Shown: positions 1-5,281 of the stretch, piece after piece
Position numbering within the stretch: position 1 is the stretch's first letter
Layout of the letters: every line of letters begins with the position of its first letter
Virus record (IMG/VR): IMGVR_UViG_2663763286_000020
Location: 1 to 5,281 of that record
DNA from: a virus
Taxonomy: Duplodnaviria; Heunggongvirae; Uroviricota; Caudoviricetes
Strand: one strand, 5' to 3'
DNA length: 5,281 nucleotides
The notes under the pieces: model-generated
Databases searched by the model: none
The model's input: only the letters and a program-made list of their open reading frames with translations
Told to the model about the DNA's origin: nothing
Translations under genes and position numbers: made by a program

Positions 1-3
1 CTG

Positions 4-807
4 GTGGTTGTTCAGAATCAGTCTGATGAAATTCCCGTTCTGGAATGGCAGGGAGTGCGTGTAGTGACAACTAAGATCCTTGCTAAGGGGTATGGGACAG
101 ATGCGGATAACATCAAGAAGAACTTTTCCCGTAATGCTGAACGTTTTTGTGAAGGCAAGCATTTCTATAAAGTTATTGGAGATGATTTGAACAATTTGCG
201 GGTGACTTTAAGTAACTCACAAAATCCTATCTCTCCTAAAGCCCGCTCACTCATCCTCTGGACGGAACGCGGCGCAGCCCGCCACGCTAAAATGCTCGAA
301 ACCGATCAGGCATGGGCATTCTTTGAAAAACTGGAAGACAGCTACTTCCGGCAAAAAGAACAGCAACCGGTTGCAATCCCCCAGACGCTTCCAGAAGCTC
401 TGCGCCTGGCTGCCGAACTGGCTGAACAAAAGCAGCTTCTGGAACAGAAAGCCCACCAGCTAAATCAGCAGCTGGTGGCCGCCGCTCCTAAAGTCGATTT
501 TGCCGACCGGGTATCAGTAGCTAAAGGGATCCTGATTGGGAATTTTGCAAAGGTTGTTGGACTTAAGCAAAACGCGCTGTTTGTCTGGTTACGGGAGAAC
601 GGCATCCTGATAGCGTCCGGTGGACGTAAAAATGTGCCGTTCCAGCAGTACATCAACGCGGGGTATTTCACGGTGAAAGAAGTGGTGCTGGATGATGAAG
701 ATGGCTACCAGATACGGTTGACGCCTCAATTAACGGGTAAAGGCCAGCAGTGGTTGACGCGTAAACTGCTCGATGCTGGCTTGTTAAAACCGGTGGCGGC
801 TGAATAA
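4..807 (+). CDS. Antirepressor-family protein, left paralog: N-terminal ORF6N/KilA-N-like module plus C-terminal KilAC-like antirepressor domain. The frame is open from base 1, so the start may be GTG at 4 or lie upstream of the window.
   Basis: 267-codon ORF ending TAA 805-807. N-terminal motifs (LAKGYGTD..NIKKNFSRNAERFCEGKHFYKV..LWTERGAARHAKML..AWAFFEKLEDSYF) and C-terminal motifs (LPEALRLAAE..KGILIGNFAKVVGL..GILIASGGRKNVPFQQYINAGYFTVKEV) fit that architecture by recall, not by a database hit. Bases 1-3 are CTG where the right-hand paralog has ATG. Confidence 0.8.
   Translation: MVVQNQSDEIPVLEWQGVRVVTTKILAKGYGTDADNIKKNFSRNAERFCEGKHFYKVIGDDLNNLRVTLSNSQNPISPKARSLILWTERGAARHAKMLETDQAWAFFEKLEDSYFRQKEQQPVAIPQTLPEALRLAAELAEQKQLLEQKAHQLNQQLVAAAPKVDFADRVSVAKGILIGNFAKVVGLKQNALFVWLRENGILIASGGRKNVPFQQYINAGYFTVKEVVLDDEDGYQIRLTPQLTGKGQQWLTRKLLDAGLLKPVAAE
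256..807. repeat. Left arm of a long inverted repeat (3' about 550 bp of the antirepressor-like gene); partner is about 4478-5029.
   Basis: Spot comparison of segments 241-540 with the reverse complement of 4741-5050 shows 0-4 substitutions per 60 nt (about 95-97% identity), mostly synonymous. Boundaries are approximate; no full alignment was computed. Confidence 0.8.
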
Positions 808-814
808 TGGAAGA

Positions 815-836
815 ATGCCCGGTTGATGCCGGGCAT
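815..836. terminator. Candidate bidirectional intrinsic terminator between the convergent antirepressor-like gene and c1.
   Basis: Perfect hairpin ATGCCCGG-ttgatg-CCGGGCAT (8-bp GC-rich stem, 6-nt loop), 8 nt after the TAA of the plus ORF and 3 nt before the c1 stop. It is followed by AATTTATT on the plus strand; the U-tract is only moderate in both directions. Confidence 0.5.
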
Positions 837-839
837 AAT

Positions 840-1691
840 TTATTGCGCGCTTTCGGGGTTGTCGTTTACTGGCTGCCCCTTCTTGGTTTTACGGCTGCGC
901 GTAACTGATGCGGCTGATTTGACCTTTTTCTCTTCGCGAGTGATGGCAATTTGTTTTTTTACATTTTCAATATCTGCCAGGCGATATATTTTTGCCTGCG
1001 GCCAGCGGTCGCAGATGATCGGTTCTATAGAGTCATAAAGGCTAAATTTTGCTTTCTCGAATTCACCGTTGATGATGATTCCATCACGGAGAGTTTCATC
1101 GCAGATAAACACACCACACAGCGGCACATGGTAACTAACTGATTTACCATCATTGTAGTTAGGGCTACTAGAAATGTAATGGACGCGCAGCATTGTTTCG
1201 CTAAAGCCGTGTACGCGCATACGGAATTTTTCATCCTCCGGGTACTGCTTCATTAGCTCTTTTGTTGCTTCCAGGTTCTCTATGTATTTCGCACTGTGCT
1301 CATTGATCCCCGCGCTTTTTTGGATGCGAATGTCCTTATCAATCAGATGAATAATGCGGCCAGCGGTCATGTTGACGCTGTTCACAGCTTCTGTCTGATA
1401 AGTTGTAACCTTACGCACACCGCGAAGGGTGTTAGGCACTGGATATAAAATAGTCTTTGGGATATTGAGGTCTGGGTACTGTTCCAGTTCCCGCGCCATT
1501 AAAGTCCATTTATCAATTTCAGCCTGAATGCTGTCAGTTTCTTTGAACGGTAGAACGACAACCGGGCGTACAGGACGACCGTCGCTGGCTGTATCAACGT
1601 GTTGGGCGCGTGCAACAGCTTTTTTTAGAAAGAGATCCCTGAAGCTGACGAACTCCTGGTACAGTTGTTCGCCGTAGACATAATTTATCAT
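840..1691 (-). CDS. c1: C1 immunity repressor of phage P1 type.
   Basis: 283-aa product MINYVYGEQLYQEFVSFRDLFLKK... matches recalled P1 C1 in length and sequence. ATG at 1689-1691 (complement) is preceded by a strong SD GGAGGAGG with 4-nt spacing; stop TAA at 840-842 (complement). Confidence 0.95.
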   Translation of the reverse strand: MINYVYGEQLYQEFVSFRDLFLKKAVARAQHVDTASDGRPVRPVVVLPFKETDSIQAEIDKWTLMARELEQYPDLNIPKTILYPVPNTLRGVRKVTTYQTEAVNSVNMTAGRIIHLIDKDIRIQKSAGINEHSAKYIENLEATKELMKQYPEDEKFRMRVHGFSETMLRVHYISSSPNYNDGKSVSYHVPLCGVFICDETLRDGIIINGEFEKAKFSLYDSIEPIICDRWPQAKIYRLADIENVKKQIAITREEKKVKSAASVTRSRKTKKGQPVNDNPESAQ

Positions 1692-1713
1692 TGATCCTCC
1701 TCCAGAATTGACA

Positions 1714-1756
1714 TGGCCAACAACTCACAGCGGATTACACTGGGAGTTGTTGGCCA
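1714..1756 (-). repeat. Perfect 13-bp inverted repeat with 17-nt spacer in the c1 leader, about 23 nt upstream of the c1 start.
   Basis: TGGCCAACAACTC (1714-1726) pairs with GAGTTGTTGGCCA (1744-1756). Not followed by a U-tract on either strand, so not a classic terminator. Function unknown. Confidence 0.6.
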
Positions 1757-1758
1757 CC

Positions 1759-1802
1759 ATTATAGAAGGATCCAACGAAAATAATAGATTTATTAGTGCA
1801 TT
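1759..1802 (-). promoter_or_regulatory. Candidate c1-proximal promoter with a C1 operator-like site at the -35 position.
   Basis: A perfect TATAAT on the minus strand (complement of 1759-1764). 22 bp upstream, at 1786-1802, the minus-strand sequence AATGCACTAATAAATCT matches 14/17 of the P1 C1 operator consensus ATTGCTCTAATAAATTT. The site overlaps the coi stop codon. Confidence 0.45.
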
Positions 1803-2011
1803 TATTGTGAGTCTGGCTGGTTAGTGGCCATGAGATATTCGATTGTGTCAGTGAGATCATCCAGGTCGTCTTGGGTGATGCGGTACTCCTGATTGGATAT
1901 CTTTGAGTAGTGTTCAGCAATGGCGCGGGCAGCGTCGGTTTCGGCGGGGTCTACAGATAAAGCGTTAGAGCAATGTCTAACGTCGTCGATGGTTGGTGGA
2001 ATGAAAGCCAT
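1802..2011 (-). CDS. coi: Coi-like C1 inactivator, a small acidic protein co-oriented with and upstream of c1.
   Basis: 69-aa ORF MAFIPPTIDDVRHCSNALSVDPAETDAARAIAEHYSK... in the position and of the size of P1 coi. ATG at 2009-2011 (complement). Assigned by synteny and size; the sequence was not verified against a database. Confidence 0.8.
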   Translation of the reverse strand: MAFIPPTIDDVRHCSNALSVDPAETDAARAIAEHYSKISNQEYRITQDDLDDLTDTIEYLMATNQPDSQ

Positions 2012-2245
2012 AATTATGCCTCACTGTATTGACAACACAGAGCCTGAAGCTCTGACCTACTGTTTCACCCATGATCCATGCTGGGGTAATCTAACAACAT
2101 TGCGCTGTGTGTAAGATGAGCAATGCATAGCTGTAATGCCGTTGTATAAGGTTTCCCTGTTTGCTCATTTCCTTCTGAGCCGCTCTACAACGCTGAAGAC
2201 ACATTAAATAGTGAATCCAAAGTCGTATTACGAAACGGCGGCAAA

Positions 2246-2272
2246 ACTATAATTTATTAGAGCAATTGTCAA
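2246..2272 (-). promoter_or_regulatory. Minus-strand promoter for the coi-c1 operon with an overlapping C1 operator (the P99a/Op99a-type arrangement of P1).
   Basis: On the minus strand, a -35 TTGACA (complement of 2267-2272) is followed directly by ATTGCTCTAATAAATTA (complement of 2250-2266), a 16/17 match to the C1 operator consensus. A -10-like TATAGT (complement of 2246-2251) follows with 15-nt spacing. Confidence 0.65.
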
Positions 2273-2332
2273 ACAACTATGAAAAACAATCCAGTTTTTG
2301 GCTGGTGGAGTGGGATTTTTCTCTCAAAATTT

Positions 2333-2349
2333 ATTGCTCTAATAATTCT
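2333..2349 (+). promoter_or_regulatory. C1 operator-like site in plus orientation, about 45 bp from loxP.
   Basis: ATTGCTCTAATAATTCT matches 15/17 of the consensus ATTGCTCTAATAAATTT, with the first 13 positions perfect. Confidence 0.6.
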
Positions 2350-2392
2350 TGATTTTTATGCGTAGCTGGACGTAAACTCCTCTTCAGACCTA

Positions 2393-2426
2393 ATAACTTC
2401 GTATAGCATACATTATACGAAGTTAT
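2393..2426. other. loxP: loxP site-specific recombination site (Cre target).
   Basis: ATAACTTCGTATA-GCATACAT-TATACGAAGTTAT: perfect 13-bp inverted repeats around the asymmetric 8-bp spacer. This is an exact match to wild-type loxP (spacer reads ATGTATGC on the other strand). Confidence 0.97.
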
Positions 2427-2498
2427 CTTAAGGGTTATTGAACATGATTAATTTACCTGTAAATCCATACAGTTCAATACCTTATCAGGTCAAATAGT

Positions 2499-2518
2499 GA
2501 TCACTTGATCATTTGATC
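2499..2518 (+). promoter_or_regulatory. Dam-methylation (GATC) cluster in the cre upstream promoter region.
   Basis: Three GATC sites at 2499-2502, 2507-2510 and 2515-2518 (8-bp spacing) inside palindromic TGATCA/TTGATCAA units, with TTGATC hexamers resembling a -35 element. P1 cre is known to have an upstream promoter whose -35 region carries Dam sites. Confidence 0.6.
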
Positions 2519-2523
2519 AAGGT

Positions 2524-2584
2524 TGCGCTACGTAAAATCTGCGAAATGTTGGCAGTGTTAGTGCTCCAGATTTCGCGTAGCGCA
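2524..2584. repeat. Long imperfect inverted repeat between the GATC cluster and the small ORF upstream of cre.
   Basis: TGCGCTACG (2524-2532) pairs with CGTAGCGCA (2576-2584), and AAATCTG (2535-2541) pairs with CAGATTT (2567-2573), with a 2-nt internal mismatch and a 25-nt loop. No U-tract follows. Confidence 0.5.
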
Positions 2585-2615
2585 CTTACCACCACCAATC
2601 AATCAGAGGTGAAAA

Positions 2616-2837
2616 ATGGGATATTCAGCTGCTAAAGTGTCCACTCATATTGAGCTTGAGAAAAACCGTGGTTACTGGCGGGCAAAAGGGTTTGATCGTG
2701 ATAGTTGTCAACTGTCATTATCGCGCGGTGAAGAGAAAATAGAACGCACGCGCGGTCGCTGGCGTTTCTATGACGAGAACCATAAACAGGTAAAGGCAGA
2801 GCCGATCCTGTACACTTTACTTAAAACCATTATCTGA
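2616..2837 (+). CDS. Small basic hypothetical protein (73 aa) immediately upstream of cre, probably co-transcribed with it.
   Basis: ATG at 2616 is preceded by a good SD AGAGGTGA. The product is R/K-rich (MGYSAAKVSTHIELEKNRGYWRAKGFDRD...). Stop TGA 2835-2837 lies 7 nt before the cre ATG. Function not recognised. Confidence 0.5.
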   Translation: MGYSAAKVSTHIELEKNRGYWRAKGFDRDSCQLSLSRGEEKIERTRGRWRFYDENHKQVKAEPILYTLLKTII

Positions 2838-2844
2838 GTGTTAA

Positions 2845-3876
2845 ATGTCCAATTTACTGACCGTACACCAAAATTTGCCTGCATTACCGGTCGATGCAAC
2901 GAGTGATGAGGTTCGCAAGAACCTGATGGACATGTTCAGGGATCGCCAGGCGTTTTCTGAGCATACCTGGAAAATGCTTCTGTCCGTTTGCCGGTCGTGG
3001 GCGGCATGGTGCAAGTTGAATAACCGGAAGTGGTTTCCCGCAGAACCTGAAGATGTTCGCGATTATCTTCTATATCTTCAGGCGCGCGGTCTGGCAGTGA
3101 AAACTATCCAGCAACATTTGGGCCAGCTAAATATGCTTCATCGTCGGTCCGGTCTGCCACGACCAAGTGACAGCAATGCTGTTTCACTGGTCATGCGACG
3201 GATCCGAAAAGAAAACGTTGATGCCGGTGAGCGTGCAAAACAGGCGCTGGCGTTCGAACGCACTGATTTCGACCAGGTTCGTTCACTCATGGAAAATAGC
3301 GATCGCTGCCAGGATATACGTAATCTGGCATTTCTGGGGATTGCTTATAACACCCTGTTACGTATAGCCGAAATTTCCAGGATCAGGGTTAAAGATATCT
3401 CACGTACTGACGGTGGGAGAATGTTAATCCATATTGGCAGAACGAAAACGCTGGTTAGCACCGCTGGTGTAGAGAAGGCACTTAGCCTGGGGGTAACTAA
3501 ACTGGTTGAGCGATGGATTTCTGTCTCTGGTGTAGCTGATGATCCGAATAACTACCTGTTTTGCCGCGTCAGAAAAAATGGTGTTGCCGCGCCATCATCC
3601 ACCAGCCAGCTATCAACTCGCGCCCTGGAAGGGATTTTTGAAGCAACTCACCGATTGATTTACGGGGCAAAAGATGACTCTGGTCAGCGATACCTGGCCT
3701 GGTCTGGACATAGTGCCCGTGTCGGTGCCGCGCGAGATATGGCCCGCGCCGGAGTTTCAATACCGGAGATCATGCAAGCTGGTGGCTGGACCAACGTAAA
3801 TATTGTCATGAACTACATTCGTAACCTGGATAGTGAAACAGGGGCAATGGTGCGCCTGCTGGAAGATGGCGATTAG
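2845..3876 (+). CDS. cre: Cre tyrosine site-specific recombinase (P1 type).
   Basis: 343-aa product MSNLLTVHQNLPALPVDATSDEVRKNLMDMFRDRQAFSEHTWKMLL...GWTNVNIVMNYIRNLDSETGAMVRLLEDGD recognised as P1 Cre. Its cognate loxP lies 418 bp upstream. Confidence 0.98.
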   Translation: MSNLLTVHQNLPALPVDATSDEVRKNLMDMFRDRQAFSEHTWKMLLSVCRSWAAWCKLNNRKWFPAEPEDVRDYLLYLQARGLAVKTIQQHLGQLNMLHRRSGLPRPSDSNAVSLVMRRIRKENVDAGERAKQALAFERTDFDQVRSLMENSDRCQDIRNLAFLGIAYNTLLRIAEISRIRVKDISRTDGGRMLIHIGRTKTLVSTAGVEKALSLGVTKLVERWISVSGVADDPNNYLFCRVRKNGVAAPSSTSQLSTRALEGIFEATHRLIYGAKDDSGQRYLAWSGHSARVGAARDMARAGVSIPEIMQAGGWTNVNIVMNYIRNLDSETGAMVRLLEDGD

Positions 3877-3893
3877 CCATTAACGCGTAAATT

Positions 3894-3910
3894 ATTGCTC
3901 TAATTCATTG
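3894..3910 (+). promoter_or_regulatory. C1 operator-like site between cre and the downstream small ORF (position of P1 Op2-type operators).
   Basis: ATTGCTCTAATTCATTG matches 14/17 of the consensus, with the first 11 positions perfect. Confidence 0.45.
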
Positions 3911-3926
3911 ATATTTATGGTGACAT

Positions 3927-4238
3927 ATGAGAAAGGATTTCAACATCGACGGAAAATATGTAGTGCTGTCTGTAAGCACTAATATTCAGTCGCCAGCCGT
4001 CATTGTCACTGTAAAGCTGAGCGATAGAATGCCTGATATTGACTCAATATCCGTTGCGTTCCCTGTCAAAAGTATGCGTGGTGCTGAACATTTCGTGATT
4101 AACGCCTCCGAGGAAGAAGCACGGCGCGGTTTTGCTAAAGTGATGTCTGAGTTTGGCGAATTTTTGTGGCACGTTGACAAAGCCCTCTCAATCAGTTCAG
4201 CAAGGTCCAAAGCGTTAACAGCTTCCATGATGAAATAA
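3927..4238 (+). CDS. Hypothetical 103-aa protein downstream of cre, in the position occupied by cra in P1. The sequence itself is not recognised.
   Basis: ATG 3927 with a weak SD (GGTGA, short spacing). Residue composition looks protein-like (..SEEEARRGFAKVMSEFGEFLWHVDKALS..). An operator-like site lies 17 bp upstream. Preferred over the overlapping minus-strand ORF 3986-4318, which contains a terminator hairpin. Confidence 0.5.
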   Translation: MRKDFNIDGKYVVLSVSTNIQSPAVIVTVKLSDRMPDIDSISVAFPVKSMRGAEHFVINASEEEARRGFAKVMSEFGEFLWHVDKALSISSARSKALTASMMK

Positions 4239-4262
4239 AAAAGCCTGGCAAGGAGCCAGGCT
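4233..4262 (-). terminator. Intrinsic terminator oriented for minus-strand transcripts.
   Basis: Hairpin AGCCTGG-caaggag-CCAGGCT (4242-4262). On the minus strand it is followed by TTTTTATTT (plus-strand A-tract 4233-4241). On the plus strand it sits 3 nt after the 4236-4238 stop codon but has no downstream T-tract. Confidence 0.6.
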
Positions 4263-4368
4263 GCACAAAAGAGCGGGTTTGTATTCCGCATACAATCAAT
4301 CAAGAAGGAGTATAGCACACAGGTACTGAAGAGAAAAAATGTGATTCGCGATAAATAAAATAGCCACT

Positions 4369-4412
4369 ATTGCTATAATTAATTGTTATAATTGAGTTGT
4401 GGCTTTAGTCAA
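4369..4412 (-). promoter_or_regulatory. Promoter island with a C1 operator-like site: minus-strand promoter TTGACT-16-TATAAC, plus two plus-strand TATAAT boxes.
   Basis: Minus strand: -35 TTGACT (complement of 4407-4412), 16-nt spacer, -10 TATAAC (complement of 4385-4390). ATTGCTATAATTAATTG (4369-4385) matches 14/17 of the operator consensus and overlaps the -10 and predicted start. Plus-strand TATAAT at 4374-4379 and 4387-4392. Confidence 0.45.
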
Positions 4413-4451
4413 CTACGAAGACATTGCCATTATAGACTCCGTGACATCATT

Positions 4452-4475
4452 GGCGGCCGAAAGGCCGCCTTTTTT
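4452..4475 (+). terminator. Rho-independent terminator for plus-strand transcripts, at the inner edge of the right inverted-repeat arm.
   Basis: GGCGGCC-gaaa-GGCCGCC, a perfect 7-bp GC stem with a GNRA-type tetraloop, followed by six T (4470-4475). It lies 2 nt from the stop codon of the convergent minus-strand gene. Confidence 0.8.
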
Positions 4476-4477
4476 AA

Positions 4478-5029
4478 TCATTCAGCCGCCACCGGTTTTA
4501 ACAAGCCAGCATCGAGCAGTTTACGCGTCAACCACTGTTGGCCTTTCCCCGTTAATTGAGGCGTCAGCCGTATCTGATAGCCATCTTCATCATCCAGCAC
4601 CACTTCTTTCACTGTGAAATATCCGGCGTTTATGTACTGCTGAAACGGTACATTTTTACGTCCGCCGGACGCAATCAGGATGCCGTTCTCCCGTAACCAG
4701 GCAAACAGCGCATTTTGCTTAAGTCCAACAACCTTTGCAAAATTCCCAATCAGGATCCCCTTAGCCACTGATACCCGGTCGGCAAAATCGACCTTAGGGG
4801 CGGCGGCCACCAGCTGCTGATTTAGCTGGTGGGCTTTCTGTTCCAGAAGTTGCTTTTGTTCAGCCAGCTCGGCAGCCAGGCGCAGAGCTTCGGGAAGCGT
4901 CTGAGGGATTGCGACCGGTTGCTGTTCTTTTTGCCGGAAGTAGCTGTCTTCCAGTTTTTCAAAGAATGCCCATGCCTGATCGGTTTCGATCATTTTAGCG
5001 TGGCGGGCTGCGCCGCGTTCCGTCCAGAG
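4478..5029. repeat. Right arm of the long inverted repeat (partner of about 256-807).
   Basis: Reverse complement of 4741-5050 aligns colinearly with 241-540 at high identity (see left arm). Boundary is approximate. Confidence 0.8.
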
Positions 5030-5281
5030 AGTGAGGTTTCTGGCGTTCTTACCAACAGAGTTACTAAAAGTAACTCTGTTCTTAAATTCCTTTAATTTTG
5101 AACCAGTTAAAAGAAAGTAGTGTTTACCTTCTTCAAAGCGATCGGAGTTGCAAGACAAATTTTTACGAATATTGCCTTCATCGGTTCCGTACCCCTTAGC
5201 AAGAGTTTCGGTTGTTACGACACGTACTCCCTGCCATTCCAGAACGGGAATTTCATCAGACTGATTCTGAACAACCACCAT
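4478..5281 (-). CDS. Antirepressor-family protein, right paralog (ORF6N/KilA-N-like N-terminus plus KilAC-like C-terminus), inverted relative to the left copy.
   Basis: 267-aa ORF starting with ATG at 5279-5281 (complement), exactly at the window edge, with stop TGA at 4478-4480 (complement). The C-terminal ~180 residues differ from the left copy at only 2 positions. N-terminal motifs RFEEGKHYFLLTGSKLKEFKN and LWTERGAARHAKMI are typical of this domain family. Confidence 0.85.
   Translation of the reverse strand: MVVVQNQSDEIPVLEWQGVRVVTTETLAKGYGTDEGNIRKNLSCNSDRFEEGKHYFLLTGSKLKEFKNRVTFSNSVGKNARNLTLWTERGAARHAKMIETDQAWAFFEKLEDSYFRQKEQQPVAIPQTLPEALRLAAELAEQKQLLEQKAHQLNQQLVAAAPKVDFADRVSVAKGILIGNFAKVVGLKQNALFAWLRENGILIASGGRKNVPFQQYINAGYFTVKEVVLDDEDGYQIRLTPQLTGKGQQWLTRKLLDAGLLKPVAAE

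Follow-up and report, generated by a model that had tools for sequence, protein, structure and literature searches.

In phage lambda, the gene for a small basic directionality factor, xis, lies immediately upstream of that for a tyrosine recombinase, int, and the lox-cre region of phage P1 is laid out alike, with a basic protein of ~72–73 amino acids (aa) encoded directly upstream of, and probably co-transcribed with, the recombinase gene. In the database entry X03453 the small P1 open reading frame (ORF) is listed as 'pot. ORF1 (aa 1-73)', with putative rRNA-binding sites already marked before both ORF1 and cre, and in the P1 genome record (AF234172/NC_005856) the same ORF is named cra, 'putative cre associated function'. 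Here we describe cra and its junction with cre in the immC/lox/cre region of a P1-like plasmid-prophage, represented by positions 1–5,281 of the IMG/VR virus record IMGVR_UViG_2663763286_000020 (hereafter the window, meaning the whole 5,281-nucleotide (nt) stretch). The small ORF that ends directly before cre in the window is the long-annotated P1 gene cra and not a new gene; the initial annotation had given it no P1 name. It has a strong Shine-Dalgarno (SD) sequence and a stop codon at a fixed, short distance from the start of cre, which has almost no SD of its own. The reading that we lean towards, with a confidence only slightly above even, is that translation of cre is partially coupled to that of cra by reinitiation and that Cra is at the same time an autonomous protein. 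As cra was already known as a feature, our additions are modest, namely the comparative points on its junction with cre and the breadth of the Cra family. The elements concerned, all on the plus strand, are as follows.

2393–2426, plus strand: loxP, 34 bp, identical to the canonical site ATAACTTCGTATAGCATACATTATACGAAGTTAT; annotated in X03453 and AF234172.
2605–2612, plus strand: SD of cra, AGAGGTGA, separated by 3 nt from the ATG; predicted anti-SD pairing of −7.1 kcal/mol; listed in X03453 as 'put. rRNA binding site'.
2616–2837, plus strand: cra, 73 codons, ATG at 2616 and TGA stop at 2835–2837; P1 ORF1/Cra, PHROG 804.
2835–2842, plus strand: weak ribosome-binding site of cre, TGAGTGTT, −2.5 kcal/mol (TGAGTG), overlapping the cra stop codon.
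2838–2844, plus strand: the 7-nt spacer GTGTTAA from the cra stop to the cre ATG.
2845–3876, plus strand: cre, ATG at 2845, encoding a tyrosine recombinase of 343 aa.

The gene order loxP-cra-cre, with cra on the cre strand, is that of X03453 and AF234172, and cra in the window and cra in P1 share their place between loxP and cre, strand, length of 73 codons, SD, stop, and 7-nt gap. The two alleles differ by three substitutions in cra and by a slightly different upstream GATC pattern, and the two products differ at two of the 73 residues. The product matches PHROG 804 over residues 3–73 (E 7.9e-35), and protein clusters in the databases are 95–97% identical to it. The cre product shows a Phage_integrase domain (E 2.8e-32) and about two non-synonymous differences from P1 Cre. 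At the DNA level, identity to the records of P1, P7, SJ46, and phiW39 is 95.6–97.2%, and those segments of the window that were tested match complete E. coli plasmids (e.g., NZ_AP018809.1) at 100% identity. The initial annotation's description of the locus, a 73-aa ORF with a strong SD, a 7-nt gap, a weaker SD before cre, and a basic product, held throughout; Cra has 15 Lys and Arg residues against 10 Asp and Glu residues, giving a net charge of +5 and an isoelectric point (pI) of 9.6. We did note that many NCBI records name the 73-aa protein and its 71-aa relatives 'creatininase', a label without domain support that probably arose from a mix-up over the gene symbol cra, and that newer RefSeq entries read 'hypothetical protein'. 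Our literature search found no paper that gives Cra a function, and the mentions of the cre promoters or of cra function that it returned were at the level of annotation.

We compared cra in the window with its counterparts in four divergent loxP-type lineages (Klebsiella, Salmonella, Enterobacteriaceae, and Cronobacter), with which the encoded protein shares 58–67% identity. The proportion of non-synonymous differences (pN) was 0.21–0.29, against a saturated proportion of synonymous differences (pS) of 0.70–0.81, and the ratio of non-synonymous to synonymous substitution rates (dN/dS) was 0.07–0.34 for cra where dS was computable, and 0.04–0.09 for cre. Synonymous changes are present even in the highly conserved C-terminal codons of cra, so the conservation there is at the level of the protein and not of the DNA alone. 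Of 5426 complete E. coli genomes, 693 carry the cra-cre junction, nearly all of them with cra intact. Judged by these substitution patterns, cra is a genuine protein-coding gene under purifying selection rather than a chance ORF. The initial annotation would have lost its footing had relatives lacked the ORF or commonly broken its frame; instead, the ORF is conserved and frameshift alleles, considered below, are rare.

The junction itself is under unusual constraint. We scored SD strength as the predicted pairing with the 3′ end of 16S rRNA in five lineages, and found the cra SD to be strong in all of them (−7.1 to −12.0 kcal/mol) and the cre SD to be weak or absent in all of them (+0.7 to −2.5 kcal/mol). 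The spacer between cra and cre is exactly 7 nt in 95 loci from the five lineages and also in phage JK004, making six divergent lineages in total, while its sequence differs by lineage (GTGTTAA, CTAACTT, GCAGACA, and TTAAGCT) and the length of the neighbouring spacer, between cre and c8, varies in these genomes from 50 to 80 nt. No terminator-like site was found between cra and cre. A hairpin hiding the cre start was considered and rejected, as none is predicted at the junction (z −0.59) and no conserved local structure was found there; any coupling would therefore proceed by reinitiation and not by ribosome-driven unfolding.

A natural comparison is offered by elements of the type of phage D6, whose recombinase Dre is 42% identical to Cre and in which no cra lies between rox and dre (locus L189 of our set, 2283–2440). 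In 35 Dre-type loci without cra, the recombinase gene has an SD of its own, with a predicted pairing of −3.9 to −7.1 kcal/mol. The gene stands directly behind a cra-like leader that retains the TTTCGCGTAGCG block and a cra-type SD, AGAGGTGAAAT (D6 and loci L191–L226), an arrangement which suggests that D6-type elements either lost cra by a precise deletion, from the end of its translation-initiation region up to the recombinase gene, or never acquired it at that point. A mini-ORF of three codons in D6, AGAGGTGAAATGGTTTCATGA, which overlaps the dre ATG, was considered as a collapsed and still coupling cra and was rejected; because most of the 35 loci have ATA in place of its ATG, the mini-ORF is not conserved and the SD alone is.

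How cre is transcribed bears directly on how it may be translated, and for this we relied on the GenBank feature tables, moving the AF234172 coordinates into the window with an offset of +2409. X03453 gives three putative promoters, of which pR1 precedes ORF1 and the other two, pR2 and pR3, fall within it; AF234172 renames them P3cre, P2cre, and P1cre, respectively, with Dam sites marked in the P3cre region. The leader and promoter features in the window are as follows.

2499, 2507 and 2515 (cluster 2499–2518): three GATC (Dam) sites, overlapping the P3cre −35.
2513–2518: −35 of P3cre (= pR1), TTGATC; annotated; no other annotated cre promoter precedes cra.
2533–2538, plus strand: −10 of P3cre/pR1, TAAAAT; annotated.
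2524–2584: inverted repeat of 18 nt, arms 2524–2541 and 2567–2584, 89% complementary, with a 25-nt loop.
2692–2721, plus strand: P2cre (= pR2), inside cra, −35 TTGATC at 2692–2697 (containing a GATC) and −10 CATTAT at 2716–2721; annotated.
2809–2833, plus strand: P1cre (= pR3), in the last cra codons, −35 TGTACA at 2809–2814 and −10 CATTAT at 2828–2833; annotated.

On transcripts from P3cre/pR1, cra would be the first cistron and the one with the only good ribosome-binding site. Ribosomes that end the synthesis of Cra at its UGA would be released 7 nt from the cre AUG, and a fraction of them would re-initiate there (termination-reinitiation), which would keep the output of Cre low and tied to the translation of Cra despite the near lack of an SD before cre. 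The coupling would be partial and not obligatory, with weak promoters inside cra giving rise to cre transcripts that lack cra and to a basal, coupling-independent supply of Cre. Both the reinitiation step and the share of Cre that it may contribute are what we infer from this layout. The initial annotation had gone further and made Cre dependent on the upstream ORF; a strict dependence does not fit two of the three annotated cre promoters lying inside cra, nor the truncated cra alleles behind which cre is kept intact.

These alleles arise from two independent, recurrent 1-nt deletions, each of which cuts Cra to 41 aa and places the stop 102 nt upstream of cre. The first (about position 2581 of locus L097, corresponding to about 2696 in the window) abolishes the GATC of the P2cre −35; in the second (about position 2569 of locus L099, 2684–2687 in the window), an A4 run is shortened. 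Each is found in tens to hundreds of public assemblies, in which c1 and cre are intact, the junction is unchanged, and no compensating SD is seen. Among the complete E. coli genomes with the junction, the two account for about 3 of 693, and in IMG/VR one of them is represented by a single copy and the other by none, against at least 80 wild-type copies, a rarity that is compatible with a mild cost. The alleles constitute ready-made natural mutants for the study of coupling. Two compensated frameshifts (P0016 and P0019) were considered as signs of selection for the native stop and were discounted, P0019 because c1 and cre, too, are broken on its contig, indicative of low assembly quality, and P0016 because it is a lone contig of 905 nt.

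Three comparative observations strengthen the case that cre may be coupled to cra: the fixed 7-nt gap, the systematic asymmetry between the two SDs, and the SD that the recombinase gene has of its own in the Dre lineages without cra. The closest experimental parallels are the termination-reinitiation gene pairs described in E. coli (PMC10666635), with which cra-cre shares a strong upstream SD, a weak or absent downstream SD, and no predicted masking structure. Its distance from stop to start is short and evolutionarily fixed but, at +7 nt, differs from the dominant −4/−1 overlap, and promoters are annotated inside its upstream gene; in addition, coupled genes often encode subunits of one and the same complex, and no physical link is known between Cra and Cre. 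Reinitiation in E. coli is strongly dependent on distance, being reduced to a variable degree at +2 and +14 nt and by 80–100% at +38 nt (PMC10666635), which makes a gap of 7 nt plausible but not optimal.

Several points weigh against coupling of this kind. The gap is longer than the typical −4/−1 overlap, and gene pairs at only +2 nt already lose 5–70% of reinitiation (PMC10666635). With P2cre and P1cre annotated inside cra, part of the cre mRNA would lack the cra start and could not couple. The 41-aa alleles, with cre intact, the junction unchanged, and no SD gained in compensation, suggest that Cra is dispensable at least in the short term. Finally, the conserved spacing could instead reflect the geometry of the P1cre promoter and its start site.

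The alternative that survives best builds on these same points and holds that there is no functional coupling, a view that we regard as a possible but clearly less probable account. Here, cre would be translated independently and inefficiently from its weak site in an A/U-rich context, mostly on transcripts with a short leader that start at the cra-internal promoters, and the 7-nt gap would follow from genome compaction together with a fixed geometry of the P1cre −10, the transcription start, and the cre ATG. The position of pR3/P1cre fits this, as 11 nt lie between its −10 and the cre ATG and the predicted start of its transcript would be about 5 nt ahead of that ATG. Hexamers resembling a −10 (TATAAT, GATAAT, TACAAT, and AACAAT) stand at the same place in divergent lineages, though this hexamer is largely set by conserved Ile-Ile/Thr-Ile codons. 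The annotated promoters themselves are non-canonical, with spacers of 12–14 nt; a simple sigma-70 scan of 2380–2900 found no promoter-like site and left them uncorroborated from sequence, and, as read from the sequence, the Klebsiella-type lineage has no P2cre −35. The untouched cre and junction behind the frameshift alleles, and the fast drop of reinitiation with distance (PMC10666635), are likewise expected if cre is translated by itself; against this, the alleles are rare, which would fit a mild cost. Independent translation also leaves unexplained why the recombinase gene has a good SD in the cra-less Dre lineage and none in every scored lineage that bears cra. Our literature search found nothing tying cre to translational coupling. 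On balance, we continue to lean towards partial reinitiation coupling.

Much of what may be said of Cra beyond its junction comes from the breadth of its family. By extending PHROG 804 with profile searches, we recovered homologues of 65–81 aa that are 28–49% identical to Cra in the window, with a pI of 9.3–10.0 throughout. An AlphaFold model built on an alignment of 39 sequences had a predicted local distance difference test score (pLDDT) of 87 and comprises a kinked helix at the N terminus, then a sheet of four strands, and lastly a helix at the C terminus; a first model from 11 sequences (pLDDT 65) was too weak for use. Cra had no match in Pfam, NCBIfam, or PADLOC. A sequence-profile search of the PDB returned unrelated proteins at best (E 0.12), a Foldseek search of the PDB with the model gave a best E of 0.47 with no excisionase among the matches, and the matches in BFVD were uncharacterised small phage proteins only.

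The genomic settings of these homologues are diverse. In SSU5-like phage-plasmids the homologue ends a run of small genes and faces a replication gene, with no recombinase after it, and two further plasmid-like contigs carry it as a lone gene adjoining umuDC. In about 270 genomes of virulent Ackermannviridae it lies between genes for an acyl carrier protein and endonuclease V. Both the SSU5-like 'putative Cre-associated protein' and the Ackermannviridae hypothetical protein (e.g., gp058 of the Salmonella phage dinky) are small and basic, at 70–81 aa, and have identities to Cra within the above range; they have in common with it the motif E-[LI]-x-K-x-x-G-[YF]-[WL]-R-A-K-G-F, a Trp that never varies, and an LLK-x-I helix at the C terminus, and neither precedes a recombinase gene. 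For this reason, we consider their 'Cre-associated' label to have been inherited by homology, and the distribution of the family indicates that the term describes a position in P1-like elements and not a general functional link. Cra is predicted to be an autonomous small basic alpha/beta protein, neither a mere leader peptide nor a Cre-specific accessory factor. Nucleic-acid binding, which the initial annotation proposed, is a guess made from charge alone, and no known nucleic-acid-binding domain or fold was detected.

It is against this background that a second alternative must be seen, in which Cra serves lox-cre as a DNA-binding regulator or as an accessory factor, for example autoregulating P3cre through the repeat at 2524–2584 or biasing Cre towards dimer resolution. 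Its appeal lies in the small size and consistently high pI of the family, in the retention of the cra-cre pair in all loxP-type lineages, even where two genes are inserted upstream, and in the overlap of the promoter with an inverted repeat whose arms are conserved while its loop varies. Set against these are the wide occurrence of the family with no recombinase nearby (SSU5-like elements, the umuDC-adjoining plasmids, and the virulent Ackermannviridae) and the Dre lineages, which work without cra. In addition, recombination of loxP by Cre in vitro proceeds without the help of accessory proteins. The comparison with lambda goes no further than gene layout, since Cra shares neither sequence nor predicted fold with excisionases and its homologues occur without any recombinase. 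Neither a winged-helix (Xis/HTH_17-type) domain or fold, nor any other likeness to DNA-binding folds, was found by the Pfam, NCBIfam, PDB-profile, and Foldseek PDB searches, and Cra adjoins cre only in loxP-type P1-like elements rather than pairing consistently with a cognate recombinase. We therefore hold a regulatory role of Cra at lox-cre to be improbable.

A bolder version, which joins this idea to the junction and which we consider a long shot, would make Cra the founding member of a family of small basic phage proteins with no structural assignment (PHROG 804), wired to Cre by the 7-nt reinitiation junction and acting on lox/cre or on incoming or replicating DNA. Were it true, each burst from the Dam-site promoter would deliver Cra together with a set fraction of Cre, and Cra would bias Cre towards cyclisation or dimer resolution, or autoregulate P3cre.

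Last, that the ORF is non-coding or a purely regulatory leader whose peptide sequence is irrelevant is scarcely credible, for while residues 26–46 in the middle of the protein accept in-frame deletions in a few database entries and a CRISPR interference (CRISPRi) knock-down of cra leaves P1 plaque formation unaffected (PMC10695390), the strong purifying selection on the amino-acid sequence, the stand-alone homologues in unrelated phages (30–40% identical), and the confident fold predicted from the alignment of 39 sequences all speak against it, and dN/dS and the family distribution effectively refute it already. The knock-down result says little in any case, given that the same genome-wide CRISPRi study found cra and cre both to be non-essential for P1 plaque formation (PMC10695390). 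Of the readings considered, we retain partial reinitiation coupling combined with an autonomous Cra.

Upstream of cra, the arms of the inverted repeat in the leader, TGCGCTACGTAAAATCTG and CAGATTTCGCGTAGCGCA, enclose the annotated P3cre −10. Four other P1-like lineages conserve the arms and vary in the loop, and the block TTTCGCGTAGCG of the 3′ arm is kept even upstream of dre in D6. Covariation is thin, with one pair changed on both sides; the repeat could be an operator or a leader hairpin. Compared with P1, the window has lost annotated Dam site 1 (GATC to GATT at 2446–2449; AF234172 37–40) and gained a new GATC at 2499, which results in the three clustered sites around the P3cre −35. The annotated LexA box (2455–2474) is identical to that of P1.

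Other loxP-type lineages (Klebsiella, Salmonella, Cronobacter, and Enterobacteriaceae; loci L003–L012 and L190, e.g., L004 1698–3004) have two extra genes between the lox-proximal leader and cra, both of which P1 lacks. The first encodes 68 aa (PHROG 19934; not called in L009–L011) and the second 356 aa (PHROG 7674), the stop of the latter overlapping the start of cra (ATGA). These lineages keep the lox-proximal leader, with its GATC cluster, P3cre-like region, and inverted repeat, which there feeds the 68-aa and then the 356-aa gene. Given this overlap and the two genes, cra-cre would, in the non-P1 lineages, be the last part of a longer operon whose genes are tightly packed.

The remaining genes of the window and the repeats that bracket them are listed below.

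4–807 (plus strand) and 4478–5281 (minus strand): two copies of an antirepressor-like gene.
2–166 / 5116–5280 and 250–818 / 4467–5035: arms of the inverted repeats.
840–1691, minus strand: c1.
1802–2011, minus strand: coi.
3927–4238: c8.

The c1-coi-loxP-cra-cre-c8 module is bracketed by the two inverted copies of the antirepressor-like gene, which encodes 267 aa with ORF6N and KilAC/ANT domains; the inner arms of the repeat span 569 nt and are 95% complementary. P1 itself has ref after c8, where the window has an antirepressor copy. This right-hand junction is real: at least 10 complete E. coli plasmids match it with 100% identity, and 54 of the 5426 genomes cover it. By homologous recombination with each other, the arms could allow the immunity/lox/cre segment to flip.

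While our finding is mainly the re-discovery of an annotated gene, it touches a system that is among the most widely used tools in genetics, and the manner in which P1 itself sets the level of Cre is incompletely described. If reinitiation from cra sets the dose of Cre, it would explain a cre gene without a ribosome-binding site, and the junction would be a compact natural device for low, ratio-locked expression of a recombinase. Cra is carried by about 13% of complete E. coli genomes via P1-like plasmids and occurs also in SSU5-like phage-plasmids and in Ackermannviridae, a family with candidates for therapeutic phages. Conserved and with a confidently predicted fold, it is a reasonable target for functional study.

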